In this document: positions 6,013 through 52,650 of the stretch, in pieces
Layout of the letters: every line of letters begins with the position of its first letter
Position numbering within the stretch: position 1 is the stretch's first letter
The notes under the pieces: generated by a model
Told to the model about the DNA's origin: nothing
What the model saw: the letters and a program-made list of their open reading frames with translations, nothing else
Databases searched by the model: none
From: Candidatus Alkanophaga volatiphilum
GTDB lineage: Archaea > Halobacteriota > Syntropharchaeia > Alkanophagales > B39-G2
Direction of reading: 5' to 3'
Assembly: GCA_029259545.1 (NCBI GenBank)
Contig: JAPHEE010000002.1
Coordinates: 5,601-69,600 of the forward strand
Length of the DNA stretch: 64,000 nucleotides
Made by a program: the position numbers and the translations under genes

Positions 6013-6026
6013 TTCGCACCCCTCTC

Positions 6027-7406
6027 TTAAACCTCATCCTTTATCTTCTCAGCAGCCTCAGCCACCCTCTTCATCGGGTTCCTAAATATCGGGAACTCTT
6101 GGGCTATTGTGAAGTACAAGCCCGAGGTCGTGGTAACCTTGAATATCTGCGTTCCGGCGTCAAGACACGCACACGCAGCCGAAATGGGCGTCAAGAAGCC
6201 AGACGTGTTCTTAACGATAACGTGGTCGCAGGAGAATGCGCCTGGGGCGGCGCCGCCGTAAAGACCGTGCGTGTAGAACACATAACCCTGCCCGCAGCCG
6301 AGCATGCGTCCAGCGTCTGGGTCTGGTAAGCCACAGGTCTCCCAGATGAGCATGTCCGGGAAGAATGCGATTACGCTCGCAACTCCTTGGACGGCACGGG
6401 CGGCAGCACAGTTAACAATAGCGGCAGCTGTCAGGCCTGCTATGGAATAAGCGTTCCACAGGCATAGGTCCGGTGCAGCCCACACAACTGCTCCCGAAGG
6501 CAATACCCATGGGTACTTGTCGCCCTTCTTTACTATCACACCGTCCTCAAGCGCTCTCTGCAGCATGCTCGTCATGACATCCCCAACAGTCCCTTTCGCA
6601 TTTTCCTTTATCAGATCAAGAACCAGACAATTTGCATTGAAGCCCTGATACGCCGACGTCAGGAGCATGTAACGCTCATACCAGCCGACATTGTAGCCCA
6701 TTTCTGCCGCCGCTCCTTGTTCAAGGATTGTACCTATGGCAAGCGCCCACATCGTCCGCATGTCAGCGAGCGCCGCAATGTGGTTGATCATTATGGACTT
6801 GAGTCCATTACCTAAGCCCTCCAGCTCTGAAGGCAGCTTCAAAAGCGGGCGAATTGGGTGCCCCGGCGGCGTCCCGACCGTCTGCGGATATCTACCCCAC
6901 AATGCCGACTTCACCAGTCCGATCTTGTACAAGTTCTCCAAGGGGTGCAAATTTGCTATTTTCGTTATTATCTGACCGAGTGCGGTCACAACTCTCGTAA
7001 ACGCTGGCGAAGTGTCATAAGAACGATTTAAGACTTCATCCGAGAGCTGGACTACGAGGATCGTACCGCCCTCAAGCACCCGTACCTCAGTCCCATCGTC
7101 GGGCCTCACCTGTAAGAGCTTGACAAGCTCATCTGCAATGTATTCGGCGTTATCCACGAGCTCGACATCGAAACCGTACCACGGCATCTTTATCTCGTCC
7201 TGCCCAACTATTGTGGACCAGCCAACTCTGCCCGTCCTGAGCATGTCCTCCAGCTTCTCAAGCTCAATGACTGTCGTCCTCTTCATGAACCTGTAAACCT
7301 CACCCATGTAGGGGTTCTTGTAAGGATGCAACGCCTCTATCGGTATGTCCTTTGCAAGCAGGTTCCCCTCATCGTCGTACAGGTCAACCTTGTCCTCGTA
7401 TTTCAT
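6027..7406 (-). CDS. mcrB: methyl/alkyl-coenzyme M reductase beta subunit-like (set 1)
   Basis: DKVDLYDDEGN, ERYMLLTSAYQGFNAN, FYTHGLYGGAAPG and CLDAGTQIF are typical McrB blocks. Full length at 459 aa. Confidence 0.85.
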   Translation of the reverse strand: MKYEDKVDLYDDEGNLLAKDIPIEALHPYKNPYMGEVYRFMKRTTVIELEKLEDMLRTGRVGWSTIVGQDEIKMPWYGFDVELVDNAEYIADELVKLLQVRPDDGTEVRVLEGGTILVVQLSDEVLNRSYDTSPAFTRVVTALGQIITKIANLHPLENLYKIGLVKSALWGRYPQTVGTPPGHPIRPLLKLPSELEGLGNGLKSIMINHIAALADMRTMWALAIGTILEQGAAAEMGYNVGWYERYMLLTSAYQGFNANCLVLDLIKENAKGTVGDVMTSMLQRALEDGVIVKKGDKYPWVLPSGAVVWAAPDLCLWNAYSIAGLTAAAIVNCAAARAVQGVASVIAFFPDMLIWETCGLPDPDAGRMLGCGQGYVFYTHGLYGGAAPGAFSCDHVIVKNTSGFLTPISAACACLDAGTQIFKVTTTSGLYFTIAQEFPIFRNPMKRVAEAAEKIKDEV

Positions 7407-7895: not shown

Positions 7896-9362
7896 ATGAG
7901 GATGGAAACGAAATCGTTGTGCCCGGAATGTCTCAGCGTGATTCCGGCGGAAGTTTACGAAGAGGGCGGGAAAATTTTAATAAGGAAGAGGTGCGAGGAG
8001 CACGGCGAGTTCGAAGACATTTACTGGGCGGACGCCGAGCTTTACAAAAGGTTTTCTGCATTTGAGAGCGTAGGCAAGGGTTTTGCGACGAGGGCGGCGG
8101 AGCGTGGCTGCCCCTACGATTGCGGGCTCTGCCCCGCACACAAGACGACGACGCTCCTTGCGAACATCGACGTGACGAACCGCTGCAATCAACGATGTCC
8201 GACGTGCTTTGCGAATGCCGCCGCCTCCGGTCGCCTTTACGAGCCCTCGCAGGACGAAATTTGGAAGATGCTCGAGGTTTTGCGCTCTGAGGTGCCGCCG
8301 TGCCCCGCCGTGCAGTTTGCGGGCGGCGAGCCGACCGTCCGTAGCGACTTCGTGGAGCTCGTTAAGATGGCAAAGAAGCTCGGCTTCGCCCAGATACAAG
8401 TGGCGACGAACGGCATCATGCTTGCGAAAAGCGTGGAGTTCTGCGAGCGGCTTGTGCATGCTGGACTTCATACCGTCTACCTGCAGTTCGATGGCGTCAA
8501 GGAGGAAGCTTACGAGAAATTAAGAGGGCGGAGGGTGTTGAAAACTAAGTTAAAGGCGGTTGAAAACTGCAGAGCTGGCGGGATAAGGAGCGTAGTGCTC
8601 GTGCCGACGCTCGCAAGAGGAGTGAACGACGATCAGATCGGCGACATCATCAGATACGCCGTCGAGAACCTAGACGTGGTGCGGGGGGTGAACGTCCAGC
8701 CCGTGTCCTTCACGGGCAGAATTGATAAAAGCGAGCTCCGCAAGCTCAGGATTACGATCCCCGACTTCATAAAGCTCGTGGAGGAGCAGACCGATGGGCA
8801 GATCCCCAAAGAAAGCTTCTACCCCGTGCCCGCAGTCGTTCCGGTGTCGAGGTTTGTCGAGGCGTGGAAGGGCGAGCCGCAAGTAGCCTTCACGGTGCAC
8901 CCACACTGCGGCGCCGCTACTTACGTGTTCGTCGACGGTAAACGGCTTATCCCTATTACAGACTTTGTGGATGTCGAAGGTATTCTTGAGTTCTTGAAGG
9001 AAAAGGCGGAAGAGCTGGAGCGGGCGAGATTGCCGGCGCTTGCGAAGCTGAAAGTTGCGATAAGCGCAGCGAAGCAGATCAACAAGTTCATAGATGCCGA
9101 AAAGGCGCCGAGTGGTGCGGAATCCATGCGCAAAGTTATCGACATTCTGACAAGAGGTGACAGAGAGTCAACGGCGGAGTTCCACCGCCGTACGCTGTTC
9201 ATCGGTTGCATGCACTTCATGGATCCCTACAACTTCGATATCAAACGTGTGCAACGCTGTGGCATACATTACGTGACGCCTGACCTCCGCATCATTCCGT
9301 TCTGTACCTACAACACCTTGCATCGTCCTGAAGTCGAAGCGAAATTTAGCAGGACGTTGTAA
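7896..9362 (+). CDS. radical SAM enzyme of the MJ0619 / tetraether lipid synthase (Tes, GDGT-MAS) family
   Basis: N-terminal Zn ribbon CPEC...C. Also GCPYDCGLCPAHK, DVTNRCNQRCPTCFA (CxxxCxxC), QFAGGEPTVRSD, RITIPDFIKLVEEQTDG and a C-terminal CMHFMDPYNFD...RCGIHYVTPDLRIIPFCTYN. Confidence 0.75.
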   Translation: MRMETKSLCPECLSVIPAEVYEEGGKILIRKRCEEHGEFEDIYWADAELYKRFSAFESVGKGFATRAAERGCPYDCGLCPAHKTTTLLANIDVTNRCNQRCPTCFANAAASGRLYEPSQDEIWKMLEVLRSEVPPCPAVQFAGGEPTVRSDFVELVKMAKKLGFAQIQVATNGIMLAKSVEFCERLVHAGLHTVYLQFDGVKEEAYEKLRGRRVLKTKLKAVENCRAGGIRSVVLVPTLARGVNDDQIGDIIRYAVENLDVVRGVNVQPVSFTGRIDKSELRKLRITIPDFIKLVEEQTDGQIPKESFYPVPAVVPVSRFVEAWKGEPQVAFTVHPHCGAATYVFVDGKRLIPITDFVDVEGILEFLKEKAEELERARLPALAKLKVAISAAKQINKFIDAEKAPSGAESMRKVIDILTRGDRESTAEFHRRTLFIGCMHFMDPYNFDIKRVQRCGIHYVTPDLRIIPFCTYNTLHRPEVEAKFSRTL

Positions 9363-15280: not shown

Positions 15281-15293
15281 TTTGTTTTTTGTT
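15281..15293 (+). terminator. oligo-T tract downstream of tfb
   Basis: TTTGTTTTTTGTT lies 9 nt after the tfb stop. Archaeal terminators are oligo-T runs. Confidence 0.35.
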
Positions 15294-15362
15294 GACGTTT
15301 TATTAAGCCGCGATGGTAAGGTATTAATTCTTTTATGGGAATCCCCATGTGGAGGCATTGGG

Positions 15363-15761
15363 ATGGCGGCAACTGCTCGCTTTTGGAGAGAGCTGAGTCA
15401 TAGGTACAACTTAGTTGGGACGCACTGCCGGAAGTGCGATTCTTACTTCTTCCCACCGAGAGACGTATGTCCAAAGTGCAGGCGTGGCGGCGACGTCGAA
15501 GAATACAAATTCAAGGGTGTTGGGGAGATTGTGACGTTCACCGTAGTGCATCAAGGGAAGAAGGATCTCAACCGCCGGCTGCCTTACGTGCTTGCGATCG
15601 TCAAATTAGAGGAAGGGCCTTGTCTACTTGCCGAGGTCATGTGCGATCCTGAGGAGATTCGTGTCGGCATGAGGGTGAGGGCGGCGTTCAGGAAGATTGG
15701 CGAGGACGGCGAGCGCGGCATCATATATTACGGTACGAAGTTCGTTCCTGCGTTGACCTGA
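15363..15761 (+). CDS. Zn-ribbon / OB-fold protein (DUF35 family)
   Basis: CRKC...CPKC ribbon followed by an OB-like segment. Trimmed to MAATARF. Confidence 0.7.
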   Translation: MAATARFWRELSHRYNLVGTHCRKCDSYFFPPRDVCPKCRRGGDVEEYKFKGVGEIVTFTVVHQGKKDLNRRLPYVLAIVKLEEGPCLLAEVMCDPEEIRVGMRVRAAFRKIGEDGERGIIYYGTKFVPALT

Positions 15762-19115: not shown

Positions 19116-20294
19116 ATGGAAAAAGTATGTGACGTGCTCGTTGTAGGTGCAGGACCTGCAGGGAGCAGTGCAGCGAGAGCTGCGGCAAGATTTAGAGCTA
19201 GAACCGTGTTCATAGACAAGAAAGAGGAGATAGGCGTACCGGTGCAGTGTGCAGAAACCATAGGCAAATACTTGCTCCCGCTCCTACCATTTAAGATACC
19301 GAAGGACCAACTAGTATGGAAGATCAAGGGGATGACCTTCTGGGCGGAAGGCATAAAGATAACGCGCCAGGGACGGTTCTGGGCGGGCTATGCGATAGAC
19401 AGGAAGAACTTTGACAAGTGGTTAGCATCTCTCGCTGTGAGGGCAGGTGCGGAGTTGCAAACGAGCGCCGAACTCGTGGATTTGGAAGTGGACGACAAAT
19501 ACAAAGTCAAGAGAGCGTACGTACGAACGCCACATGGCGTGATATCCATTAGACCAAAGGTAGTGATTGCCGCAGACGGCGTCGAATCCTCCGTTTTAAG
19601 GCTATTGGGCTTCAAAATAAACAAAAAGGAGAACTTAGGGGAGGTCTTGGGCTTTGAAATGCGAAACTTGAACTTGGAGAAGCCCAACTACGATCATTTG
19701 TTCCTCGGAGACTTTGCGCCTGGCGGCTATGCATACATATTCCCAAAGTCGAAACATGCGGCAAATGTGGGCGTCGCCACGCTCTTCCCAAGCAAGAGTT
19801 TGGAAGAATACTACGAGGAATTTTTGGAGATCCCGGAGGTCAAGAGGCAGCTGGATGGGGGGGTCGTGGTTGAGGAGAAGAGCGGGAAGGTCCCAGCTCG
19901 CAATCTAGTTGATAGGTGGGTTTACGGGAACGTGCTTCTTGCGGGCGATGCTGCCAACCAAAACATCAAGCCGTTCGTAGAAGGCATCCTCCCGTCCGTT
20001 ATTTGCGGCGATATTGCCGGAAGGGTCGCCGCTGCCGTCGTGAAGGGAGTAGGCTTGATAGACACCTATCCTAAGAGAGTAAAAATGAAGCTAGGTAGGC
20101 TCCTTAAAAGATCTAATGCAGTCATGAGCGTCAATGATAGCTTATTTAGACAAGGTGCTAAGGGTGCTCTTCTGAGTTTATGCCTATTAGCTGAAGTTGT
20201 TCCCCTGAGAGAGATAATAAAATTGGGAGAGGAAGAATATACTTCAGTTAAGAGATATATAGAAGATCTGAGCGTCCGATGGGGATCTAAATGA
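19116..20294 (+). CDS. FAD-dependent oxidoreductase, geranylgeranyl reductase family
   Basis: DVLVVGAGPAGSSAA dinucleotide fold, AADGVESS and LLAGDAANQ. Confidence 0.75.
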   Translation: MEKVCDVLVVGAGPAGSSAARAAARFRARTVFIDKKEEIGVPVQCAETIGKYLLPLLPFKIPKDQLVWKIKGMTFWAEGIKITRQGRFWAGYAIDRKNFDKWLASLAVRAGAELQTSAELVDLEVDDKYKVKRAYVRTPHGVISIRPKVVIAADGVESSVLRLLGFKINKKENLGEVLGFEMRNLNLEKPNYDHLFLGDFAPGGYAYIFPKSKHAANVGVATLFPSKSLEEYYEEFLEIPEVKRQLDGGVVVEEKSGKVPARNLVDRWVYGNVLLAGDAANQNIKPFVEGILPSVICGDIAGRVAAAVVKGVGLIDTYPKRVKMKLGRLLKRSNAVMSVNDSLFRQGAKGALLSLCLLAEVVPLREIIKLGEEEYTSVKRYIEDLSVRWGSK

Positions 20295-23200
20295 TATACT
20301 TGGGTAGTGACGTGTTAGGGCCCATAACGTTATTTGTCACAATAAACGTTTTCATCCTTTCCCTTATACTAACGTCCATACTTGAGGCAAAGAGGAAAAC
20401 GAGCTCAGGATTGTGGAACGACTTGCTCTTAGGAACATGTTTTTACATAGTGAAGACGGGAATTATAGGAATAATACTAACGCGCCTACCAGACACCTAC
20501 AAGTTGATGCTTATCATCCTCCCATATTCCACAGCCACGACATGCGTGTTTTTCGTACATTATTTGATAATAAAACCGTTGTTAAGAGAGATAAAGTTCA
20601 TGAAGCCTGAATACATGAGTTTTTATGCAATATTTACAGCGATATATTGGATAACTTTCGTCAAACTTGCTCCAATTGTAAGCTCTTTTACTTTTACACT
20701 TAAAGCTGCTCCAGTCATATACATATTTATTGCGCTATACTTGTTCATAGTACTATACGTGATTCGTTACTTTATAGCACTATTTGATAATTATCGAAGG
20801 ATAGGATTTTTAGAGAAGCCAGCATTGTTAGCGGCAGTTAGTTTGATACCTGTGATTGCATACTCTGTATCTCTAGTTATAATGTGTGACATACACTCAT
20901 ACTATCATTTGCTATCAGGCTGGATAATCTGTTTTGCAGTTACCGTGGTGAGTTACTTCCGCTTTGCTGTCGAATATCCCTCCCTCCTCCAACCCAAGTG
21001 GAAAGCATACATGCCTTTCGACCCTGTGAAGATGACCGCCGCTCTGACCATGGCGTTTCTTGCGGTTTCCGCTTACTTCACCGTGATGGAGCACGGCACG
21101 CCGCAGTTCCTCAGCATGCTGCGCTCCGCATTTCTACCGCTTCTCGTGCTGCTTGCTGCCATCTTCACGGAGGTCGCTATCATTCTGACGTTTCTCAAGA
21201 ATTTCGCCGCCGGGACGGCGCTGAAATACTGGCATCTGCTGAAGAGCGGCTTGTATATACACATCGCAGCCACGCTATATGTATTTTGCCTGATGTTCTT
21301 ACTTTGGAATGGCATCTCCGCATACGAGCGACTGCTATTCGTGATATTCGCCATCGCCACGTTCGCCTTCTACCTCTTCTATGCGCTGGATCTCAAAACT
21401 CTTTTATCATACCAAGGGATCGAGCCGACGTTCAGCAAGCTGGATATTGCCAGATACTTCGTCTGCCTTTACTCCGCATTTTTCTTCATCCTCTTCAGTT
21501 TGAATTTCACGTACGGCAGGACATCTCTTTACGTGAATCTCGAGTCTCGCCCTGCAATCCTGTTCTTCATCCTCTTTTTCATGACATCTTTCGGCACATA
21601 CCTCAGCATGTCGCATAAGGGCTACGAGGAGGTACTGCGGAAGAACATATGGAGCGAGCTTTCTTACGTCTCGGCGTTCGGCGCCGCCGCCGTAGTTTAC
21701 GCAATATACAGCTCCGTAGCCGCAGTACGGAGCTTCCCCCTCAGAGACCTCTTCTTCGTCGGCTATTTCCTCGTGCTGCTCATCGAAATACTTTCGACCG
21801 CAATGCTCCGCCGTGCCTATAGATGGTATGAGCGAAGAGCGGAGGCAAAAGACATTGTGGAGCTTTTGAACCGTTATGCTCTTGCCTTCTTGCGGGTTGA
21901 TTTCTTGAAAGAAATCTGGGAAAAAATCGTGGACAAATACGTCCCGCAGGACAAGCAGCGATATGTGAGGTTCGACGCATCGTCCCGCACGTTCCGCATA
22001 GACTTGGATGAGAAAACACGAACGACGGTTGCGGTTGCCATGTTGCTTGAAATGTTCCGCAGCCCGCCGCCAAGAGCGACAACTGAGGAAATACCACCGG
22101 AAAGGGTTAAAGCCGAGACGAAGAGTGTGTTGAAAGAGAAGGTTTTAGTGTTACCTGAGGAATTGATGCACGAGTTGGGGGAGCCTTCGGAATATTATCC
22201 GCTGTTGTACCTGAAGACGCTCCGGGACTTGGAGGGACGGCTTAGGGTTTTCATTCCTGAGTTCCATCTCGATACGTTCTTCGAAAGACTGGCAAACATA
22301 AACCCCGCTTTCAGGGAAGTCTCTATTAGGGAGGAGGAATACGACGGCTCGTCCTATGAGCTGCCAGAGGGGCTACGCTTCCAGAGAGACGACTTCCTGA
22401 GGTATTTCAAGCTGTTTGTGAGGGCGGTGGAAGAGCGCTTCCCATTCAGGTATTCGCTGCTCTACGATGCTGTTAAGAAGAAAGTGAGGGAAGAACTACA
22501 CCTTTACGGCTTCACGCTGAGCGAGCTGCTGGACGTGGTCCTCACTGGAATCAACGGGATAGACAACGTACTAGGCGGGCTTGTAAAGAACAAATCTACC
22601 CTGCTTCTAGCTGAGGATTCGAAGGCCAAGAACAGAATGCTGGTAGCATTCGCAGCTCAAGGGCTGAAGGATGGCGACGGCATCATCTTTGCAAGCTCTA
22701 AGCGTGCTTCTGAGGAAGTTTTGGACGACTTGGAGATGAGCTTGAACACTTTTATCGACGGCGGCGTCATGATGATAGACCTGTATCGGGCGACCCACAC
22801 CGACAAACCGCCAAGCTCCCTCATTGAAGAAAAGCACAGACTGATAGTGCCTTTAAACAAGACGCTCATCCAACACGGCATCGTCAAATCGGTAAAAGCG
22901 TACCCCAAGGAGCTCCATAAGAGAATGGTGCTGGACATATACGATGACCTCTTGAAGTATTACAACTTTAACGAACTTTTCGCAATACTAGAAAGACAAC
23001 TCGACGGCTTCAAACGTTGGAACTGCACGACTTTCGTAACACTGAGCCAGAGGTCGGTATCGGTAGCAGAGCTTGAAAAGCTGGAGAGAGTATTTGATAA
23101 CGTGTTTGTTCTACGTGGTAGGGATGTAGATGCAAAGCTTTTCATCGAAAAGCTTTATGGAGGCGTACCCTCAGGCGTGAGGGAAATACCGGTAGTGTAG
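20291..23200 (+). CDS. large polytopic membrane protein with C-terminal degenerate RecA/KaiC-like domain
   Basis: About 470 N-terminal residues of hydrophobic helices. The C-terminus, GINGIDNVLGGLVKNKSTLLLAEDSKAKNRMLVAF...GIIFASS, has a KaiC-like layout, but the GxxGxGKT P-loop is replaced. The 5' ~700 nt are AT-rich. Confidence 0.55.
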   Translation: MIYLGSDVLGPITLFVTINVFILSLILTSILEAKRKTSSGLWNDLLLGTCFYIVKTGIIGIILTRLPDTYKLMLIILPYSTATTCVFFVHYLIIKPLLREIKFMKPEYMSFYAIFTAIYWITFVKLAPIVSSFTFTLKAAPVIYIFIALYLFIVLYVIRYFIALFDNYRRIGFLEKPALLAAVSLIPVIAYSVSLVIMCDIHSYYHLLSGWIICFAVTVVSYFRFAVEYPSLLQPKWKAYMPFDPVKMTAALTMAFLAVSAYFTVMEHGTPQFLSMLRSAFLPLLVLLAAIFTEVAIILTFLKNFAAGTALKYWHLLKSGLYIHIAATLYVFCLMFLLWNGISAYERLLFVIFAIATFAFYLFYALDLKTLLSYQGIEPTFSKLDIARYFVCLYSAFFFILFSLNFTYGRTSLYVNLESRPAILFFILFFMTSFGTYLSMSHKGYEEVLRKNIWSELSYVSAFGAAAVVYAIYSSVAAVRSFPLRDLFFVGYFLVLLIEILSTAMLRRAYRWYERRAEAKDIVELLNRYALAFLRVDFLKEIWEKIVDKYVPQDKQRYVRFDASSRTFRIDLDEKTRTTVAVAMLLEMFRSPPPRATTEEIPPERVKAETKSVLKEKVLVLPEELMHELGEPSEYYPLLYLKTLRDLEGRLRVFIPEFHLDTFFERLANINPAFREVSIREEEYDGSSYELPEGLRFQRDDFLRYFKLFVRAVEERFPFRYSLLYDAVKKKVREELHLYGFTLSELLDVVLTGINGIDNVLGGLVKNKSTLLLAEDSKAKNRMLVAFAAQGLKDGDGIIFASSKRASEEVLDDLEMSLNTFIDGGVMMIDLYRATHTDKPPSSLIEEKHRLIVPLNKTLIQHGIVKSVKAYPKELHKRMVLDIYDDLLKYYNFNELFAILERQLDGFKRWNCTTFVTLSQRSVSVAELEKLERVFDNVFVLRGRDVDAKLFIEKLYGGVPSGVREIPVV

Positions 23201-24874
23201 TCACCTTGACGGTATGATGGGGTTGCGTTCGCCGGCGGGCATGAACTCGCGGAGGGCGCCGCGGGCGATGCACGCCCTTATGTTTCGGAAGTCGAAGACG
23301 AGGTCGGGGTCGGCGAACGCCACCTTTATCACCGGCGACAGCCCCCACGCGTCCATCCGCGCCTCGTGCGCCGCAACGACCGCCGGCGACGTGAAGAACT
23401 GGGAGTCTGCGAGGTAGGAGCGGAACGGGACGTTCGGTCCGTGGAGTTCGACGGGCATGCCCTCGTCGATGAGCACCGACGGCAGGATGCCGAACGAGTT
23501 GTGGTGGTGCGTCTCCTGCCCGCCCCAGCCCGTACGCAGCAGCAGCTCCTTGTGGATCAGCGTCAGAGCGTGATGAGCGGCGAGCGCCCCCGCATACGCA
23601 CTGCCGGTCGCCCATGCGGCGCAGACGCCCGCCATCATCGCGATGAACAGGTTTTTGATGAGTCCCCAGTGGTGCTCCAAGAGCACGGGGTATTTGTCGT
23701 AGTCCTCGCAGCAGTGGAGCACCGCCTCCCGCGCGCACTCGTGGATCACGTCCCAGCCCGGCGACACGCCCGCAAAGCCGTACCTGTCACGAACCCACCC
23801 CGCAAGGTGCTCGCCCCAGCCCTCGAACGTCTCGTTGAGGTAGTACACGGAGGCGCCGACGGTGACGCCGACCGACCCTATCATCTGCTGCCCGTAGTAC
23901 CACTGCATGTACAGGACTTTTTCGAGGGCGACGCCCTCCGCCGTCACCGGGACTGGCGATTCTGGCATTTTCGAGGGGTGCTGCACGATGTCGAAGATGT
24001 AGCCGCACGGGAGTCCGACGGGGTTGTTGTGCCCGTGCGCCCGTGAGGGGAACGGCGGGGTTCCGATGAACACGTACTGGGCGTGCTTCGCCGAGAAAGC
24101 GAAGTCTGAGATGGTGGACTCGCCGGCGCAGAGGCGGTAGGCGGCGATGAACGCCATGGTTTGCGCCATGGCGTTCCAGCGGTGCACCATGGCGCCGTCC
24201 ATGCTCCGTATTGCGTGCGTCGGCAGCCTCGAGACCTGCCAGAGGGAGGCGCCGACGCCTTTTTTGAGCTTTGCCGCCCTCTCGGCGTCGAACTCGCGGT
24301 CGATGTCGATGAGGAAGCGTCTGTCGAGCTTTGATGCGAGCTCGTCGCTGCCGGTGAAGGTTTTGACGTAGGCGTCCGGGGCGAGGGCGGGGTTGACCTC
24401 CACCATGTGCTCTTGGGCGACGGCGCCGCCGACGAGCGTGTGGTTTATGGTTTCGAGGTAGATGTTGATGGTTTCGGGGGTGACCTCGCGCCCGTAGCGG
24501 TTCGTGAGCACGCGGTGCGGCAGATCCAAGCACGTGATCGCCGTCCTGAAGATGTCGTCGCGGAGCTGCTGCATCGCCGCGTTGTTCAGCACGTGCAGGT
24601 CCTCGTACTCGCAGAGCACATCCGTCCCGCTCACCCGCACCGGCTCCAGAAACCGCTCGCCCACCGGGACGCCCAGCCCCAGCTCGTCACAAATCCGATC
24701 CGGATTGTACGACGGGATCCCCCGCCCCTCCGCTATCCTGCGAGCCGCCTCGATAAACTCAGACTTCCGCCTCGACTGACGACGACCCCCGTACTTATGA
24801 AACTTCGAGTCTTTAAGCTCCGACGGCAAGACTCCGTACGTCTCCTCAAGAATCTTTAAAAATTTCTTCTCCAT
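23201..24874 (-). CDS. mcrA: methyl/alkyl-coenzyme M reductase alpha subunit-like, divergent (set 2)
   Basis: NNAAMQQLRDDIFRT, REVTPETIN, GGAVAQEHMVE, AKHA and DEGMPVELHGPN are McrA blocks. The substrate-channel blocks are substituted (see findings). Confidence 0.85.
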   Translation of the reverse strand: MEKKFLKILEETYGVLPSELKDSKFHKYGGRRQSRRKSEFIEAARRIAEGRGIPSYNPDRICDELGLGVPVGERFLEPVRVSGTDVLCEYEDLHVLNNAAMQQLRDDIFRTAITCLDLPHRVLTNRYGREVTPETINIYLETINHTLVGGAVAQEHMVEVNPALAPDAYVKTFTGSDELASKLDRRFLIDIDREFDAERAAKLKKGVGASLWQVSRLPTHAIRSMDGAMVHRWNAMAQTMAFIAAYRLCAGESTISDFAFSAKHAQYVFIGTPPFPSRAHGHNNPVGLPCGYIFDIVQHPSKMPESPVPVTAEGVALEKVLYMQWYYGQQMIGSVGVTVGASVYYLNETFEGWGEHLAGWVRDRYGFAGVSPGWDVIHECAREAVLHCCEDYDKYPVLLEHHWGLIKNLFIAMMAGVCAAWATGSAYAGALAAHHALTLIHKELLLRTGWGGQETHHHNSFGILPSVLIDEGMPVELHGPNVPFRSYLADSQFFTSPAVVAAHEARMDAWGLSPVIKVAFADPDLVFDFRNIRACIARGALREFMPAGERNPIIPSR

Positions 24875-24887
24875 CCCGGCAACCCTC

Positions 24888-25661
24888 CTATTTCCCGTTT
24901 ATTAAGTCGGGTCTAAGCCCACCCAGCACCCGCAGCTCGCCTATCCGCTTCACGACCTTCATAAGCTCGTCGGCGACGGTCGGCGGCACGTGATCGAAGC
25001 GATAGACGGTCGCCATCTTCTTAAGCTCCTCTTCAGGTAGCGGCGGACCCACAGGCACTGGCTCCTCAAGCGGCACGGACTGCTGCGTCTTCACGTAGAC
25101 GACCTCACCCCGCTCCTTGTCGTATATATAACGGCGGCGGGCGTCGAACATCAAACCGTCCTCGTCGAGACGGAGCGAGTAGCCGTGGACGGTGATCGAA
25201 CGCAGAGCGCAGCGTGCCGTGTCGAACATCTCAGTCTCCAGCAGCGTCTTCGCCACCCGGTCGATGTCGCGCTCCCTCATTTCGAGGAGCGTGCGCCCTG
25301 AGTACGCAAGGGAGTCAAAGCCCCGGAATTCTCTGTTCGTCGCATATATCCGGAAGCGGAGCCACGGCGGCAGCGGCGCAAAGTGCTGAGAGTCCGTAAA
25401 CTGAATGTAACGGATGCGGTCGCCGTGTCGGGCACCGTCGGTGGGCTCTACAAGCTCCTTTATCGGGTCAGGCGGCTCCTTTATCTCATCTAATGGGGGA
25501 TGTACGCTAGAGTATGCCATTCCTGGCTTCCTGTGCCCCAAAAGCTTCACTATGTCGTCATCTGAAATCTCTCTCAGTTTCTTAGGCTTAAAATCCGGGT
25601 CAAGCCATTTGCGACGACGCTCCGCAATCTCATCAGTACCTGGATATGGAATTCCTACCAT
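24888..25661 (-). CDS. mcrG: methyl/alkyl-coenzyme M reductase gamma subunit-like (set 2)
   Basis: LLGHR, VHPPLDE, YSGRTLLEMRERD and HGYSLRLDEDGLMFDARRRY. Confidence 0.88.
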   Translation of the reverse strand: MVGIPYPGTDEIAERRRKWLDPDFKPKKLREISDDDIVKLLGHRKPGMAYSSVHPPLDEIKEPPDPIKELVEPTDGARHGDRIRYIQFTDSQHFAPLPPWLRFRIYATNREFRGFDSLAYSGRTLLEMRERDIDRVAKTLLETEMFDTARCALRSITVHGYSLRLDEDGLMFDARRRYIYDKERGEVVYVKTQQSVPLEEPVPVGPPLPEEELKKMATVYRFDHVPPTVADELMKVVKRIGELRVLGGLRPDLINGK

Positions 25662-25670
25662 CTTACCACC

Positions 25671-27032
25671 TCACAACTTATCTTTAATCTCAGAGGCAGC
25701 CTCCGCCACGTATTTTATCGGCTGTTTCATCTCAGGCGGTAGTACGTCCCTTATCTTCATGTAGACTCCTGATGTCAGCTCCGGCGTGAACGTCTGTGTC
25801 CCGGCATCCATACACATCCCGGCGACGATACATGGCGCTATGAAGCCCCGTGAGTGTCTGAGTAACGGACCTGCTGGCGCATAAGCGCCAGGACCGGCGC
25901 CGCCGTATATGTTGTGCGTGTAGAAAGCGAAACCTATCGAGGTCCCGAGCACACGCCCGAAATCTAGGTCAGGTAGCCCCGTTGCCAACTTTATTATGTC
26001 GTTAAAAGCGTTTATCGTCGCCGGGGCGCCCTGCACTGCTCGCATAGCGCCGCAATTCACAATCACGGCGGCGAGTTGTCCTGCTGCCATATAGGCATTC
26101 CACAGGCAAGCGTCGTCGGTCTTGTAGATCTTAAAGCCTGACGGAAGTGTCTCCTTGACTTTGATCACGCCGTCTTCTTCAGCTCGTCTTATCAGGCTAA
26201 GAATCACGGTACCTATCGTACCGTCCTTCCCGTTTTCCTTAACAAGCTCGTATACCAAGTTATTTGCATTCAATCCCTGATACGCAAGCCTTAACAGATG
26301 ATAGCGCTCGTAAACCGGATGGATGGCGTCGCCGCTGTCGAACATCGCCAGCGTCTCGAGGATCGCAGAAAGCGCCACGCCGTTAAGCGTGTTCTTATTA
26401 GTGATGGCTACGATGTCGTTCACCATGTTCGTACGGAACGCAAGACCGACGCCGTCGAGCGCCGGCGGCCAGCCGCGTAACAGCCCTGTGACGGCGCCGC
26501 GCAGCGTTATCGACTGTGGATACCTGCCGAAAATTGCCGACTTTATCACGTTGGAGCCGTTGAACGGTGTTATGTTGAAAAGCTCGATAATGGCGTGCGC
26601 CGTCGCGACTCCGACGTTCACGGTCGCAGAAGCCCAATCGCTCGCCATGTACATTCGGAGGGTAGGCACCTGCACAAACAGAATTTCGCCACCACCGAGC
26701 ACATGCACGCTCGTGTCGTCATCGTCGCTCACCCGCACGTACCTATCAACAAGCTCGGCGATCTTCTCGGCGTTCTCTACGATCGGGAGGTCGAGCTCGA
26801 TGCCTGGGATTTGACACTCCTCGCCGACGCCCATTTCTCCACCCATGCGTCCGGAGCGTAATGAATCCTCAATCCTCCTCAAATTCACGATCACTGAACG
26901 CTTGAACGTTTCACAAATCTTCTTTATCGCCGGGTTATGCAGCGGGCTTATCGCGTCCAGCGGAATATCTTCCGCAATCCGCTCGCCCCGCTCATCGTGT
27001 AGGTCTATCCTATCTGGATGCCTAACAGCCAT
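25671..27032 (-). CDS. mcrB: methyl/alkyl-coenzyme M reductase beta subunit-like (set 2)
   Basis: [40 protein letters not shown] and CMDAGTQTF. Confidence 0.88.
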
Positions 27033-27070
27033 GTTGTCACCCCTATTCTTTCTGATTTATCAACTAATAA

Positions 27071-27104
27071 AATTACCTTAAAGGCAAACAAATTACCCTG
27101 AAAG
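27071..27104. promoter_or_regulatory. 20-bp-phased direct repeat in the mcrB / marker-15 divergent intergenic region
   Basis: AATTACCTTAAAGG at 27071-27084 and AATTACCCTGAAAG at 27091-27104. Confidence 0.35.
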
Positions 27105-27188
27105 TGCTGTGAGAGTTGCGGCGCGTCCCGACGTTGCCTCAAATTTTGTGATGATAAATTCTAATAAGACGAGGAGAAACCAAAGGAT

Positions 27189-28412
27189 ATGGGGATAAAA
27201 ATAGCCCAAGTATCTTGCGGGACGGTTTACGGCAACGTGCAACATGAGATCGAGGCGGCGGCAAGAGCCGTCGGCGCCGAGATTTTCGTGCCTGAAGTCT
27301 CTCTCGATTATGCTCGCGACAAAGAGAAAGAATTCGGGTTCGACGTGCGGAGCGAGGGTCTAAGGATCGCGTTGGCAAGGGGCTACGCCGTCGCCGAGGG
27401 TCTTTGCGACGCCGACGCCGTGTTCATCGCAACCTGCCACAAGTGCTCACGGGGCGCCATCGTCAGGACGGAACTGAGGAAGATAATACAGGAGAGGGCG
27501 GGGCTGCCCGTGGTCATGTATCCATTTACGGAGAGGACGAAAGCCGGCGAGCTGCTGACGCGGATGGAAGCGTTGGTGACGATCGTCACGAAGCGGCACA
27601 TCTTGGAGCGTAACAAGCAGGAGGGGCTGACTGCAGGCATAGATTCGGGCTCGACGACGACGAAGGCGGCGATCATGCAGGACGACGAGGTCCTCGGCGC
27701 CTTCTGGACGCACACCACCGACCCGGTTAAGACGGCAGAGAAGGTTTTTGAGGAGGCGTTAAAGCGGGCGGGCGTCCGCCGTGAGGAAATAGAGGCGTTA
27801 GGCACCACGGGCTACGGGCGGCACATCGTCGGAAAGCACTTCAAGGCGGATCTCATCCAAGAGGAGCTGACGGTGAACTCGAAGGCTGCGATGTATCTGG
27901 CTGGGCTTTTGAAGGGCGATTGCATGGTCGTCGACATCGGCGGCATGGACAACAAGATAATAACGGCGAGGGACGGCATCCCCGACAACTTCACGATGGG
28001 CGGGATTTGCGCCGGGGCGTCGGGACGCTTCCTCGAGATGACCGCACGGAGGCTCGGCGTGAGCGTCGAGGAGCTCGGGAAGCTCGCGCTCGCCGGCAGC
28101 CCCGAGAAGGTGAAGATGGACAGCTACTGCATCGTCTTCGGCATTCAGGACTTGGTGTCGGCGTTGTCAAGGGGCGCCCGCCGCGAAGACGTCGCCGCCG
28201 CCGCCTGCTACTCCGTCGTCGAGCAGGTCAAGGAGCAGCTGCTGCAGGAGATCGACCTGAGGCAGCCCGCCATCGAGGTAGGAGGGACGGCGCTCGTCGC
28301 CGGCGTCCCGAAGGCGATGAGCGACGTCTTGGGCTTCGACGTCATCGTGCCGAAATACCCGCAGTATATCGGAGCGATCGGCAGCGCCCTGCTGGCGTCG
28401 TCGTTTAGATAA
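27189..28412 (+). CDS. BadF/BadG/BcrA/BcrD-type ATPase, methanogenesis marker protein 15-like
   Basis: The N-terminal ~140-aa domain starts MGIKIAQVSCGTVYGNVQHEIE. It is followed by an acetate/sugar-kinase-fold ATPase with GIDSGSTTTKAAI and VDIGGMDNK. Confidence 0.65.
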   Translation: MGIKIAQVSCGTVYGNVQHEIEAAARAVGAEIFVPEVSLDYARDKEKEFGFDVRSEGLRIALARGYAVAEGLCDADAVFIATCHKCSRGAIVRTELRKIIQERAGLPVVMYPFTERTKAGELLTRMEALVTIVTKRHILERNKQEGLTAGIDSGSTTTKAAIMQDDEVLGAFWTHTTDPVKTAEKVFEEALKRAGVRREEIEALGTTGYGRHIVGKHFKADLIQEELTVNSKAAMYLAGLLKGDCMVVDIGGMDNKIITARDGIPDNFTMGGICAGASGRFLEMTARRLGVSVEELGKLALAGSPEKVKMDSYCIVFGIQDLVSALSRGARREDVAAAACYSVVEQVKEQLLQEIDLRQPAIEVGGTALVAGVPKAMSDVLGFDVIVPKYPQYIGAIGSALLASSFR

Positions 28413-28985: not shown

Positions 28986-29795
28986 TCACGGTTTGAGGCA
29001 GGACGGATGCCTTGATACACCTTTTAAGAGTTGAGAGGCTTGAGGGGCTAGGAATTCTAATTCTACATCCCATCCGCTCTTTCTTACACGGCGCCGTCTT
29101 TGCTCCTTTCCACTGAGCTCTTTTTGGAGCAGCTTCGCCTCTCTCGTGGCATGTGAGAGTATATGCGTATCGAAGTGCGCTCTCAAGGCGGCGGTGAAGC
29201 CCATGAATGTCGAGCGGCGGTTTTCGGGCTGAGCGAGCCTTATCGCAAACGGCGGCGCCCCTGCGAGCTTCCCCGCGCAACCCCTCGCCCCCTTGCGGTC
29301 GGGCGGCGCCGTCACGAGCCCGATGCGTTCCGCCCCTCGCATCGAACATCTCACCGAGGAACAAAAGCCCCTTCGCCTTATGGACGCCGACGAGCCACGG
29401 CAGAACTGACCTCGGCGTCCGCTGCTGCGACGAGCCTCACGACGGGCGCCGAGCCTCGCATTCTCCGCCGCAATGACAATATCGCACATGCTCGCTAGAA
29501 TCAAACCGGCGGCGACGCATAGCCGCTCACCGCCGCAACCACCTGCTCCTCGCAGCTCCAGACGTGGACGTGGAGCATCCGCTCAAGGTCCTTCCTCTCC
29601 TCGGCTCGAACCATTACCTCAGGGGCGTGAGAGGCGTCCATCTCGTCAGGGTCGTAGCCCGATGAGAACGCCCGCCGCCCGCCAGCACGACCGCACGCAC
29701 GCCGCCTCAGCTTCCGCCCTGCTCGACGCATCATCTGGCTCCTCAGCCCTACGCTCAGAGCGTTCGGTCTCTCAGGGCGGTTCAACGTGACTATT
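28986..29795 (-). pseudogene. enoyl-CoA hydratase/crotonase-family pseudogene (multiple frameshifts, N-terminus truncated)
   Basis: Fragments VTLNRPERPNALS, FSSGYDPDEM, VVAAVSGYA and LASMCDIVIAAENARLG, together with AERIGLV, are spread over at least two frames (track ORFs 29501..29833 and 28986..29504). Confidence 0.65.
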
Positions 29796-29804
29796 TTCAA
29801 GTTT

Positions 29805-31514
29805 CTAAGCAAAAATTTCAGGATAGAGTTCATGGGCTTTGAAATGTATTATTCCTATCCTCGCCTTTAAGAACGCCTCGTATGTTTCTAATCTCCAGAG
29901 GTTTTCATCCGTAGGTATAAAATGCTTGTCTATGTATGCTCTGTATTCAGGTAGATACTCATGCGGAGGTCTATCACCAATTTCAGAGTTTACCTCCTTC
30001 TTTATAAATGTGATGTTTCCGATATTGTTTATAATAATGTCTCGATTATCTTCGATTTCTAAGTTCTCTTTTAGGAAATCTCTCGGAAATATGTGATGTC
30101 TGTCTAAGCCGTCAAAAGGTCTTATTTTGAGCCTTTCACCCGTCCAGTCAGTGGCATCGTTCTTGATTAACAAAACGTATAACAAGAAGAGGTAACTTCT
30201 ACCTTGTCTACCTCTAAGAACATTCATTTTCAGTCCAGCTTCTAGGTCTTCCCTACGAATCCTTATTGGAAGTCTTCGCTTTTCGATGTTGTTCATTAGT
30301 TCATCAAACGGAAAGTCTCGATGTGCTTTAATGATCCTTAAGTCCTCTTCGAGCTTTGTGTCGGTTTGCGAGCTGTAATACCCAATGAAGCTAACAAGCA
30401 CAAACCAGCTTTCGATCAGTTTGGCGAGATCTGAGTTAATTTGGTTGATGTTAGTAATGTCGTTGGATGAAAAGTATTTGGCTATCGTTATTAGCGGTAT
30501 CTGACTTGGCAAGATTCTCGTATCTTTTATTCCGAGATTATCTTCCAAGAACTTTGTTGTTAGTTTGAGAGCGTTACCCATTTTACTAACCTTCTTCTTT
30601 CTCGAGTCTTCATCAGTCTTTTGAATTTCATTGACAATCTTTCTAAATTTCTCAGCCTTTATATCTGACATCGGAATATCAAATTCCGATAAAATAGCTC
30701 TAATTACGGGTTGTAAATCGATCCTAAAGCGTTCTAAGTCTTTGTAGATTAGGACTATATCGTTCTTAAATGATCCTCTGATAGTACCAGCCAAGAAGGA
30801 TAAGATCATTTCTACATTGCCGATCTCTACACCGCTCTTATTTACCCTAACAAAGGCTTCAGCCATCTTCGAATACGTTCCTTCATTTTCATCGTACGTT
30901 TGTAAGATGTACAACGGAATCTGATAGTTTAAGATTCTATTGGCGATTTTACAAAGTTTGTCAAAGATTGCACTGTCTAGACGCTCACTTAACTTTCTGG
31001 ACATCTGAGGATCGTAAATCGGTGACCCCGCCACTGACCTCAATAGATCGTAGATGTTCACATACTTACTCGATTTGTACAATTTATAATCACTATCTCT
31101 TTTTTCAAGATTGATTGAGATCGGCATTCTTTCAATTTCTTCATCTTCTCTTGATATTTTCCAATTGTTAAACATAAGGAGCAAAGTAGTTAACCTCTGC
31201 TGACCATCTATCACATAATAAACTTCCTTATTGAAGTCCTTCTCGCCAATTATCGGTTTTGAAAAAGGGTCATTTTCATAAACGTTTCTTGATGGCTTCC
31301 AGAGGATTATGCTTCCTACGGGGTACCCATTTATCATGGAGTCTATGAATTCCTTCACATCCTCCTCATCCCAAACGTAATCCCTCTGAAAGGTCGGTAG
31401 TAAATACGTTTTAGTTTTTAATAGCTCTTCAACTAACTCCTTTACACCTCTCTTGCCCGCCTCTGGTATCAGATTCATACAGTAGTTGCTGGCGTAGGGC
31501 ACGTATTTAAACAT
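29805..31514 (-). CDS. GmrSD-like type IV (modification-dependent) restriction enzyme, DUF262 + DUF1524
   Basis: N-terminal FQRDYVWDEEDV and IDGQQRLTT (DUF262/ParB-like). C-terminal DRHHIFP...NNIGNITFI...N (His-Me finger/DUF1524). The gene is strongly AT-rich relative to its flanks. Confidence 0.75.
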   Translation of the reverse strand: MFKYVPYASNYCMNLIPEAGKRGVKELVEELLKTKTYLLPTFQRDYVWDEEDVKEFIDSMINGYPVGSIILWKPSRNVYENDPFSKPIIGEKDFNKEVYYVIDGQQRLTTLLLMFNNWKISREDEEIERMPISINLEKRDSDYKLYKSSKYVNIYDLLRSVAGSPIYDPQMSRKLSERLDSAIFDKLCKIANRILNYQIPLYILQTYDENEGTYSKMAEAFVRVNKSGVEIGNVEMILSFLAGTIRGSFKNDIVLIYKDLERFRIDLQPVIRAILSEFDIPMSDIKAEKFRKIVNEIQKTDEDSRKKKVSKMGNALKLTTKFLEDNLGIKDTRILPSQIPLITIAKYFSSNDITNINQINSDLAKLIESWFVLVSFIGYYSSQTDTKLEEDLRIIKAHRDFPFDELMNNIEKRRLPIRIRREDLEAGLKMNVLRGRQGRSYLFLLYVLLIKNDATDWTGERLKIRPFDGLDRHHIFPRDFLKENLEIEDNRDIIINNIGNITFIKKEVNSEIGDRPPHEYLPEYRAYIDKHFIPTDENLWRLETYEAFLKARIGIIHFKAHELYPEIFA

Positions 31515-36473: not shown

Positions 36474-37690
36474 CTTTAGGATAAATGTTGCTGCTAATCC
36501 CCATCTTTTCAAAGATGGGATATAGCAGGGGAGGTGGGTGGTAATATTTAGTAGAAGAACTATACTAAAAATGATGGAAGTGACAAAGACGATCAGGTGC
36601 AAGCTGATCGGTCTGACGAAGCGCAAGCAAGAGTTGCTTAATAGAGAGTATGACAACTTCCAGCACTGGCTCGAGACGGGCGAGGACAGAGGCGTGTATT
36701 CAGCATACAAGCAGGATGCGAGGTGGCTGTACAAGAAGGCGAGGCGGATGAAAGGTGTTCCCATAAGGAAAGACTTGATAGACATTCAAAGAAGAGACAC
36801 GAAAATAGCAAAATACTGGGCGAGGATAAGGGTAAAAGGTGTGAGAGGAGGCGTTGGTCGCACTCGCTCATCAACATTTCAATTTTGAGGCGTGGAGAGT
36901 ATGTGAATCTCTGCTCGTCAGGAGGGATGGAGATTTCTATCTTTATGTTACGGTCAAGAAGGATGTCGAGCTGGAGAAAGAATATGCATCCATCATAGCA
37001 ATAGACCTAGGGGCCAAATGGGTTGCCGTGTCGGTGGCACGGCACCGCAGTAAACCGAAGTTCTACGGCAGAAGGGTGAGAGGGGCTCGTGGAAAGTATT
37101 TCTGGTTGAGGCGAAAGTTGGGCAGAGAAAAGAAGCTGAGGGTGATAAAGAAGATCGAGGGCAAGGAGCGGAGGATCGTGAACGACGAGCTCCACAAGAT
37201 AGCAAAGGACATCGTTGAAGAAGCAGAGAAACACGACGCAATAATAGCGATTGGTGACTTGAAAGGCGTCAGAAACAAGAGGCGAGGAAGAAAGGCAAAC
37301 AGGAAGGTCAACTCAATGCCATCGCACAAACTAAGGGAATACATCAAGTATAAGGCACTTGAGCGAGGCATTCTGGTGATAGAAGTTCCCGAATATAACA
37401 CATCGAAGCAGTGTTCGAGGTGCGGCTCGATGCGAACTGAAAGACCTTCTCAGGGAGTTTTCATCTGCGAGGATTGTGGCTACCAGATTAATGCCGATGT
37501 GAACGGAGCTAAAAATTTATTAAAACGAGCCCACGCCTACATGGTGTGGGCAGGGGCTGCGGTGACCCAGCCCGAAGGGGAGCGGTTCGTCCTGAGCCAC
37601 ACTCCCCAACCTCTCGCATCCGGCGGATGCCCCTTCAGTGAGGGGAGGAGGTCACTCGTACCTGCATGCTCTCTCTTAATCCTCTGAAGG
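36474..37690 (+). mobile_element. IS200/IS605-family element carrying tnpB only (no tnpA)
   Basis: The left end AAATGTTGCTGCTAA...GATGGGATATAGCAGGGGAGGTGGGTGG and the 3' structured region GGGGCTGCGGTGACCCAGCCCGAAGG...GAGGAGGTCAC...GCTCTCTC recur in short copies at 38.4, 40.8 and 60.9 kb. Confidence 0.7.
36571..37687 (+). pseudogene. tnpB: TnpB RNA-guided nuclease homologue with a frameshift near 36850
   Basis: RuvC-like IAIDLG, EVPEYNTSKQCSRCG...CEDCG zinc finger and NADVNGAKN. The N-terminal 95 codons (track ORF 36538..36888) are in a different frame from the remainder (36854..37687). Confidence 0.75.
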
Positions 37691-47696: not shown

Positions 47697-47697
47697 G

Positions 47698-48171: not shown

Positions 48172-48176
48172 GGAAG

Positions 48177-49643: not shown

Positions 49644-49660
49644 TTTTACACTTTTTAGCT

Positions 49661-50188: not shown

Positions 50189-50311
50189 CCGCCCAACCCA
50201 AATCACCAACTTTTAAAAGCCAGCGGCGGAAAGGTTTCGTCGTGACGGCACGTTGAACATGAGGAGGTGAGAGGGGCGGCGTCGGCGTGGCGTGCGTCGC
50301 CGCCCGTGCCC

Positions 50312-51954: not shown

Positions 51955-51985
51955 CTATTTTTAGGGACGGTACCAACCTTCTTCG

Positions 51986-52624: not shown

Positions 52625-52633
52625 GGTGTTGCA
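52607..52633. repeat. left arm of 27-bp imperfect inverted repeat bounding the AT-rich cassette
   Basis: GGTTCTGTTGAA-TCTTA-GGGTGTTGCA matches the reverse complement of 55036-55062 at 24 of 27 positions. Confidence 0.85.
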
Positions 52634-52650
52634 TTTGTGATGTTGCAAGT

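Follow-up and report, generated by a model that had tools for sequence, protein, structure and literature searches.

A three-gene operon, acrBGA_1, occupies positions 23201-27032 of the 64-kb stretch of Candidatus (Ca.) Alkanophaga volatiphilum DNA analysed here (the window), and very probably encodes a functional, secondary alkyl-coenzyme M reductase (Acr) isoenzyme, Acr_1, whose sequence points to a rebuilt substrate chamber in an otherwise canonical methyl-coenzyme M reductase (MCR) architecture. The operon is not a new object. An exact sequence look-up matched all of its proteins, without a difference, to MDF2956555/54/53 (OD814_000177-175), deposited on an 87-kb contig under "Candidatus Alkanophagales archaeon MCA70_species_1", the present Ca. 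A. volatiphilum, and the locus, which does not differ from the published acrBGA_1 (Zehnle et al., 2023, Nat Microbiol; PMC10322722), has already been deposited and named, with published expression. Added here are a mapping of its residues, the features specific to its clade, ratios of non-synonymous to synonymous substitution (dN/dS) and the recognition of its 'yjiL' neighbour as methanogenesis marker 15. The operon and its upstream side comprise the following features:

25671-27032, minus strand: acrB_1, beta subunit (453 aa; MDF2956555.1, OD814_000177)
24888-25661, minus strand: acrG_1, gamma subunit (257 aa; MDF2956554.1, OD814_000176)
23201-24874, minus strand: acrA_1, catalytic alpha subunit (557 aa; MDF2956553.1, OD814_000175)
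27033-27188, no strand: divergent intergenic region between acrB_1 and mmp15, presumed promoter region (156 nt, by-eye reading)
27189-28412, plus strand: mmp15, methanogenesis marker protein 15, a BcrAD/BadFG-type ATPase (TIGR03286, Pfam BcrAD_BadFG)

A sequence-only reading of the window had described an intact B-G-A operon, and the coordinates of the open reading frames (ORFs), their order, the minus strand and both spacers proved exactly right, with 9 nt between acrB and acrG (25662-25670) and 13 nt between acrG and acrA (24875-24887). Purine-rich, Shine-Dalgarno-like runs were seen by eye before all three starts (GGGGTGA, GAGGTGG and GGAGGG); GGGGTGA lies 5 nt and an A/T-rich TTTATTA about 40 nt upstream of the acrB ATG, both read by eye only and without an archaeal promoter model. 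All three subunits carry MCR domains with full-length coverage in Pfam and NCBIfam, as expected of the MCR/ACR superfamily: MCR_beta_N (E 4e-56) and MCR_beta (9e-101) in acrB_1, MCR_gamma (1e-95) in acrG_1, and MCR_alpha_N and MCR_alpha in acrA_1, with Pfam E-values between 1e-15 and 1e-101. Chance ORFs were ruled out by E-values down to 1e-156. When scores were compared with the NCBIfam equivalog cut-offs expected of a canonical Mcr, gamma passed (TIGR03259, 302 bits, cut-off 172), while beta missed its cut-off by 0.35 bit (TIGR03257, 515.9 bits, cut-off 516.25) and alpha reached 521.5 bits on TIGR03256, for which the cut-off is 767.75; alpha is therefore divergent. As judged by these family-profile scores, sequence divergence of the set is concentrated in alpha, in which MCR_alpha_N scored 335 bits and the C-terminal MCR_alpha domain (PF02249) just 55.7 bits.

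Neither mcrC nor mcrD was matched among the window ORFs scanned with Pfam and NCBIfam, a scan that left ORFs shorter than 150 aa mostly uncovered; within this scope the absence noted earlier was borne out, and both genes were located elsewhere in the genome (mcrC, OD814_000380; mcrD, OD814_000784). YcaO, TfuA and Mmp10 also gave no Pfam or NCBIfam match among the window ORFs scanned. The earlier count of a single alpha gene and two genes each for beta and gamma was upheld by a tblastn search of the window, which put the additional B at 6027-7406 and the additional G at 5119-6012. In the earlier reading, a B-G-A order lacking C and D was noted as reported for Acr operons. The layout itself stands but it has no diagnostic value, since methane-oxidising MCR operons of the anaerobic methanotrophic archaea ANME-1 also have B-G-A order without C and D (PMC9081873).

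Active-site residues were mapped using the numbering of Methanothermobacter marburgensis McrA, counted from Met1; this sequence was checked to be identical to PDB 3POT_A, and literature numbers were reproduced. Alignments were made with HMMER against PDB chains and with MAFFT for sets of 120 and of 45 sequences. These two independent aligners agreed and left the blocks discussed below gap-free, so the substitutions on which the sequence-only reading had relied are not alignment artefacts. The axial-ligand block GGAVAQEHMVE was retained, as claimed; Gln154, the equivalent of Gln147, is invariant in the AcrA_1 clade and would supply the axial ligand expected for F430 (Gln, or Met in ethyl-coenzyme M reductase, ECR). 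Retention of the methyl-His context AKHA (His264, equivalent to His257) was likewise confirmed. GVGFTQYATAAY pairs with SVGVTVGASVYY, giving F330V, Q332V and Y333G and hence the predicted loss of the Phe330 and Tyr333 equivalents, and the alpha-subunit alignment pairs RLGFYGYDLQDQCG with RTGWGGQETHHHNS. In the thioglycine block the Gly is kept and Asp450 and Cys452 are lost, as had been stated, but the earlier pairing with GWGGQETHHHN was off by one residue: FYGYDLQDQCG corresponds to WGGQETHHHNS, which places Gly445 at Gly452, Asp450 at His457 and Cys452 at Asn459.

Overall, alpha keeps Gln147 (Gln154), Arg225, Lys256, His257 (His264), Arg271 (Arg278) and Gly445 (Gly452). Its changes are R270S, L320Y, F330V, Q332V, Y333G and Q400I, followed by F443W, Y444G, Y446Q, D447E, D450H, C452N, M480Y, N481L and V482A. 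All five residues expected in the canonical channel (alpha Phe330, Tyr333, Phe443, Tyr444 and Asn481) are thus replaced, by Val, Gly, Trp, Gly and Leu respectively. In beta, Phe361 and Tyr367 are kept, with F362Y and H379G changed; in gamma, Arg120 is kept, with L117Y and H158Y changed. Of the 188 alpha positions that do not vary in the canonical set, AcrA_1 departs at 65, including 54% of those within residues 281-460.

These substitutions are set in a conventional fold. An AlphaFold2 (AF2) model of alpha (pLDDT 83.5, pTM 0.89) matched the MCR alpha chains 5N28_A and 1MRO_A with template-modelling (TM) scores of 0.90-0.92 in Foldseek. The same enzymes, MCR III of Methanotorris formicicus (5N28) and MCR I of M. 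marburgensis (1MRO, 3POT), are the best solved matches to alpha in both sequence and structure (500 bits, 46% identity, same length), and the only indel of more than one residue relative to MCR I is a 7-residue N-terminal insertion. Like MCR I and III, Acr_1 has the Gln147 axial ligand, His257, Arg271 and Gly445; unlike them, it replaces Phe330, Tyr333, Phe443, Tyr444 and Asn481, together with the modified residues Gln400, Asp450 and Cys452. Beta is 50% identical to M. marburgensis McrB, and beta and gamma are approximately 50-53% identical to Methanothermobacter subunits. ECR of Ca. Ethanoperedens thermophilum (7B1S), a divergent MCR homologue acting on a multicarbon alkane, shares the fold (TM 0.88 query-normalised, 0.83 target-normalised), but its alpha (7B1S_A) is just 36% identical (356 bits). 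ECR is distinguished by insertions in its subunits, by Met as the axial ligand and by Trp in place of Phe330 (PMC9081873; PMC9118554), none of which is present in Acr_1, with its Gln axial ligand, Val at 330 and alpha of 557 aa. The ECR-like S. caldarius protein OFV68676 has FY-A-S-D where Acr_1 has WGGQE.

In a large protein search, relatives of alpha formed ten clusters at 62-89% identity, after which identity fell to 47% or less; close clusters with names came from Ca. Syntrophoarchaeum caldarius, Syntropharchaeia/-ales and one "Methanospirareceae" metagenome-assembled genome (MAG). The position of alpha was examined with a neighbour-joining tree (Kimura distance, 45 sequences, 550 columns, 100 bootstraps), a distance tree of limited sampling that included four references from the published alignment (PMC10322722) and clusters named by look-up. 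Its canonical sample covered Methanobacteriales, Methanococcales, Methanosarcina, Methanofastidiosia and others; for ANME-1 and ANME-2 the comparison consisted only of scores against PDB chains, which were lower than those of class I methanogen chains. Eleven sequences, exclusively from Alkanophaga and relatives of Syntrophoarchaeum, formed an AcrA_1 clade in 100/100 replicates. The canonical clade was recovered in 98/100 without AcrA_1, and the two were sisters in 0/100, so that alpha falls neither inside nor beside canonical McrA, in keeping with the divergent status first proposed for it. AcrA_1 appears to join the other Acr clades on the non-canonical side, a grouping that is weakly resolved. 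According to its text, the published maximum-likelihood tree puts the Acr_1 alpha in the acrA clade (PMC10322722).

Shared sequence features were also sought among established Acrs. An RTG(W/F)(G/A/S)GQE motif is common to AcrA_1 and six established groups (AcrA_3, OFV67021, Polytropus, Methanoliparum, Hadarchaeota and Helarchaeota), as are R270S/A/Q, M480Y/F, V482A and the loss of Tyr333; L320Y is otherwise found only in AcrA_3, OFV67021 and Helarchaeota. AcrA_1 carries the resulting Acr signature, Tyr333 loss combined with W/F-G/A-G-Q-E in place of F-Y-G-Y-D, a definition drawn up here on the basis of named Acrs rather than a curated one. Taken together, protein identity, phylogeny and this active-site signature support the assignment of the operon as an Acr-type, non-canonical MCR set. 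Three features are specific to the clade: Phe330 is replaced by Val, Ala, Ile or Asp; D450H occurs with an HH or HHH run; and Asn481 is Leu or Phe. The clade also retains the full loop 239-246 (YRLCAGES), in which all other non-ECR Acr groups aligned have a one-residue deletion. This deletion was proposed by Lemaire and Wagner (2022; PMC9118554) to open a cleft for larger alkanes, and AcrA_1 therefore lacks the mark of the cleft-type, mid- to long-chain Acrs.

Comparison with individual Acrs sharpened this picture. The Ca. S. caldarius orthologue (P0009, LYOS01000003.1) and Syntropharchaeia relatives (P0003-P0010) are 62-69% identical to AcrA_1, fall in the same 100/100 clade and resemble Acr_1 in B-G-A order, the W443-G444-G445-Q446-E447 motif and His450. 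Block 330-337, on the other hand, differs in almost every relative (VTVGASVY, VTVAPATF, ATVGPSSN and others), and Arg271 is Lys in some. AcrA_3 of Alkanophaga, present in the same host, and OFV67021 of S. butanivorans ('group d', the main expressed Acrs) share RTG(W/F)GGQE, R270S, L320Y, M480Y and Tyr333 loss with AcrA_1, to which they are approximately 30-47% identical. Unlike AcrA_1, AcrA_3 keeps Phe330, is much extended at its N terminus (635 aa) and carries the loop deletion of one residue. The acrA_3 gene also differs from acrA_1 in lying apart from its acrBG pair (window 5119-7406).

To assess constraint, the operon was compared with the syntenic locus of an A. liquidiphilum-like genome (L001). 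The dN/dS of acrA was 0.11, that of acrG 0.03 and that of acrB 0.045, with 0.16 for the pocket-bearing alpha residues 331-460; the range of 0.03-0.11 indicates that the Acr_1 genes are under purifying selection. A pseudogene reading was rejected on the same values. Relative to canonical MCR, the most variable parts of the AcrA_1 clade are residues 331-350 (the Phe330-Ala337 block), 451-465 (following the thioglycine) and 476-500 (the Asn481 block), stretches that are nearly invariant in canonical MCR. Such variability of the predicted pocket fits lineage-specific tuning, or relaxed constraint in these segments.

By homology, acrBGA_1 would encode an alpha2beta2gamma2 nickel-F430 enzyme, one of three Acr isoenzymes of the thermophilic Ca. 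A. volatiphilum, that converts an alkane and CoM-S-S-CoB (the heterodisulfide of coenzymes M and B) into alkyl-S-CoM and HS-CoB at Ni(I)-F430. Axial Gln154 is predicted to hold F430, and gamma-Arg123 and beta-Tyr376 would anchor the sulfonate of CoM. The residue ring that encloses the methyl group in MCR appears to have been rebuilt (Phe330 to Val, Tyr333 to Gly, Phe443 to Trp, Tyr444 to Gly and Asn481 to Leu), and the result should be a larger chamber of altered shape, suited to a multicarbon hydrocarbon; an enlarged chamber is probable on these substitutions, and the earlier proposal that smaller channel residues fit a substrate larger than methane is, like any substrate preference, an inference.

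Published data on the host are in line with such a role. Each Alkanophaga MAG has three Acrs, every one of them in the divergent acrA branch according to the text of the paper (PMC10322722). Canonical Mcr is absent, so that methane is neither oxidised nor produced, and C5-C14 cultures form alkyl-CoMs and are inhibited by 2-bromoethanesulfonate (BES) (PMC10322722). The source data list OD814_000175/176/177 as "acr, alkane activation", and OD814_000175 is acrA_1 because its FPK values (540.6 on pentane, 761.1 on hexane and 749.7 on heptane) equal those published for "acrA_1" (PMC10322722). With genome means of 227, 497 and 389 and acrA_3 (OD814_000515) values of 5451, 2753 and 3420 on C5, C6 and C7, respectively (PMC10322722), acrA_1 is transcribed at approximately 1.5-2.4 times the genome mean and at a level 4-10 times below acrA_3. 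Acr_1 is a secondary isoenzyme, transcribed above the genome mean but below acrA_3.

Several observations weigh against a functional alkyl-CoM reductase of this kind. Alpha Arg270, Asn481 and Tyr333 and beta His379 bind coenzymes in MCR; their replacement in Acr_1 (R270S, N481L, Y333G and beta H379G) means that coenzyme binding could differ. Having neither the cleft deletion nor the gas-tunnel insertions of ECR (PMC9118554), the enzyme has a substrate route that is not accounted for. The grouping of AcrA_1 with the other Acr clades is weak in the neighbour-joining tree of 45 sequences, and in raw score alpha matches class I methanogen MCR (500 bits) better than it does ECR (356 bits). Finally, alkane activation has been credited mainly to Acr_3, with the role of the other two left open (PMC10322722).

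It is also possible, however, though on balance doubtful, that Acr_1 is specialised for a class of substrate outside the published cultures (C2-C4 gases, or branched or cyclic hydrocarbons), or that it works preferentially in the reductive, alkane-forming direction. An architecture unlike that of both ECR-type and cleft-type Acrs would suit such a specialist, as would the clade-specific F330V/A/I, D450H with its HH(H) run and N481L/F, and the hypervariability of the pocket among clade members. For the Acrs of Syntrophoarchaeum, a flux back to alkanes has been discussed (PMC11543930). On every n-alkane supplied, acrA_1 shows moderate, roughly constitutive transcription, which is consistent with a substrate other than these, but which is no less compatible with a reserve isoenzyme for the same n-alkanes.

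Far less probable is that acrBGA_1 represents a decaying or catalytically dead paralogue, a scaffold or remnant, with Acr_3 alone at work. Expression 4-10 times under that of acrA_3, the loss of catalytically important residues and a variability within the clade that, relative to canonical MCR, peaks in the pocket segments are all compatible with decay. Intact ORFs with ribosome-binding-site-like spacers, a dN/dS of 0.03-0.11 (including 0.16 for residues 331-460), transcription exceeding the genome mean and persistence of both the clade and the B-G-A order across two genera are not. Moreover, axial Gln, His257, Arg271, Gly445, beta Tyr367 and gamma Arg120 are retained, and Tyr333, one of the residues that is gone, is likewise missing from all of the demonstrated multicarbon Acr groups that were examined.

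A canonical, methane-metabolising Mcr (methanogenic or ANME-type) that only looks divergent is scarcely credible and has already been largely refuted: ANME-1, the sister group of Alkanophaga (PMC10322722), has the same B-G-A layout without C and D, class I methanogen MCRs score best among solved structures, beta and gamma are approximately 50-53% identical to Methanothermobacter subunits and alpha is of canonical length without large indels, yet alpha was within or sister to the canonical clade in 0/100 replicates and far under the TIGR03256 cut-off, 65/188 canonical-invariant positions are altered, with Phe330, Tyr333, Tyr444 and Asn481 all gone, and the host, having no canonical Mcr, neither oxidises nor produces methane (PMC10322722).

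The A. liquidiphilum-like sequence used for comparison is a 73-kb contig (ENA ERZ26872901 NODE_23; L005:10001-11689 and L001:10001-11677), which carries, in addition to the syntenic acrBGA_1 operon, an orphan acrA_1-like gene, P0002. P0002 has no adjoining B or G gene, and 87 bp separate it from the end of the contig. Over nt ~91-810 and ~1380-1620 it matches the DNA of the operon acrA with 100% identity, whereas the central ~570 nt (aa ~275-455, containing the pocket blocks) are just 51-76% identical to that gene; this central part is 60-68% identical to every member of the AcrA_1 clade. The mosaic arose either when old paralogues underwent gene conversion or as a chimera of the assembly. That the published acrA_1 record of A. 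liquidiphilum is marked partial would be consistent with a genuine repeat having interrupted the assembly at this point. Under the bolder, unlikely proposal for the clade set out in the last paragraph, the pocket may even be passed between paralogues as a cassette, with the ~570-nt segment of P0002 as the example.

Upstream of the operon, the divergent mmp15 gene scored 642 bits on TIGR03286, above the cut-off of 455.75, and matched Pfam BcrAD_BadFG. The same gene is labelled yjiL (2-hydroxyglutaryl-CoA dehydratase activator) in a figure legend of PMC10322722, and the neighbours named in Extended Data Fig. 3 of that paper (a fixC-like flavoprotein and a yjiL-like activase) are present in the window too. 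Adjacency of acrB_1 and mmp15 is kept in L001 and absent at the S. caldarius orthologue locus (L003), which has no mmp15 neighbour. In M. acetivorans, Mmp15 belongs to an 'MCR activation operon', and has been suggested to be an ATPase, perhaps one in transient association with the activation complex (bioRxiv 10.64898/2026.03.18.712670); by analogy, mmp15 is possibly an accessory of Mcr/Acr activation linked to acrBGA_1. On the other side, a gene for a 969-aa protein (window 20291-23200, plus strand) converges on acrA_1 with zero intergenic distance. Its N-terminal half looks multi-pass membrane-like by eye, and its C-terminal part gave a weak match to a KaiC/RecA-like ATPase domain (28.8 bits). 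The arrangement is kept in L001, where the protein is just 71% identical (dN/dS 0.13).

The window also holds an alpha-less pair, acrG_3 (5119-6012) and acrB_3 (6027-7406), which are OD814_000157 and OD814_000158. Since the highly expressed acrA_3 is encoded away from its acrB and acrG (PMC10322722), this pair is the partner of acrA_3. It precedes OD814_000156, a 197-aa 'hypothetical' protein (window 4516-5109, minus strand) whose gene starts 9 nt past acrG_3, in the slot that acrA occupies in a BGA operon. By itself, OD814_000156 gave a weak Alkyl_sulf_C match (E 0.02). A profile of its family (17 members), run against PDB chains, matched SCP2 proteins (4uei_A, 6e-6; 1c44_A, 1.4e-4), Pfam SCP2 was matched by 7 of the 17 members (best 2.3e-8), and all of the top 40 Foldseek PDB matches of a modest AF2 model (pLDDT 58) were SCP2-fold proteins or domains. 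OD814_000156 is thus an SCP2-fold (sterol-carrier or lipid-transfer) protein. The family is tiny, with 15 representative clusters among 1.84 billion proteins, and in all four lineages checked the gene directly follows acrBG_3 or an acrA of the OFV67021/AcrA_3 type; it also occurs at L006:352-969, L007:793-1380 and L008:2446-3045. From this placement, the protein could be a carrier of alkanes or alkyl-CoM for the main Acr; no link between SCP2 and Acr was found in the literature searched. Divergent from acrB_3 lies a gene for a radical-SAM protein (window 7896-9362, plus strand), identified as tetraether lipid synthase (Tes; NF045702, 715 bits) and not an Mcr-modifying methyltransferase.

Elsewhere, a plus-strand region (45168-51529) encodes the acetyl-CoA decarbonylase/synthase subunits CdhA (45168-47696) and CdhC (48129-49643), separated by a 157-aa ORF without a Pfam match (47698-48171), and a thiolase (50267-51529). 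Together with a ChsH2/BbsA-like OB-fold protein at 15282-15761, CdhA, CdhC and the thiolase fit the published route from alkane to CO2 by beta-oxidation and the Wood-Ljungdahl pathway downstream of Acr. At 29106-29800 and 29805-31514, both on the minus strand, an enoyl-CoA hydratase gene adjoins a GmrSD-type restriction endonuclease gene, which lies in a stretch of low GC content (~45%) and is inserted relative to L001. The hydratase gene is intact in L001 (265 aa) and here falls into two reading frames (-1 and -3) that overlap at ~29405-29519, the mark of either a frameshifted pseudogene or a sequence error in the MAG. A TnpB/Cas12f-like fragment (36854-37687, plus strand; 277 aa) contains the TNB domain only. 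Two DNA methylase genes lie at 51941-54632 in a low-GC (~41%) stretch with unannotated ORFs, probably a restriction-modification locus or mobile DNA.

To our knowledge, Acrs are the only enzymes known to activate non-methane alkanes anaerobically in archaea, and one structure, that of the ethane ECR, has been solved. The host oxidises petroleum alkanes of C5-C14 and has two "spare" Acrs, of which Acr_1 is one; the substrate of Acr_1 would show how the MCR scaffold encodes substrate range. The addition made here to the published account is modest: a residue-level description of the clade, the finding of purifying selection and the observation that segments invariant in MCR are those that vary in the clade. 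A bolder proposal, which we consider unlikely on the sequences at hand, is that AcrA_1-type enzymes are a structurally distinct third kind of Acr, having canonical length and loops with no ECR tunnel or cleft, Phe330 lost, a His-rich run past the thioglycine position and a lineage-variable pocket, that is confined to Alkanophaga and Syntrophoarchaeum relatives and would serve another class of hydrocarbon (gases, or branched or cyclic compounds). If that were true, the pocket diversity of the AcrA_1 clade would represent a natural library of Acr specificities.

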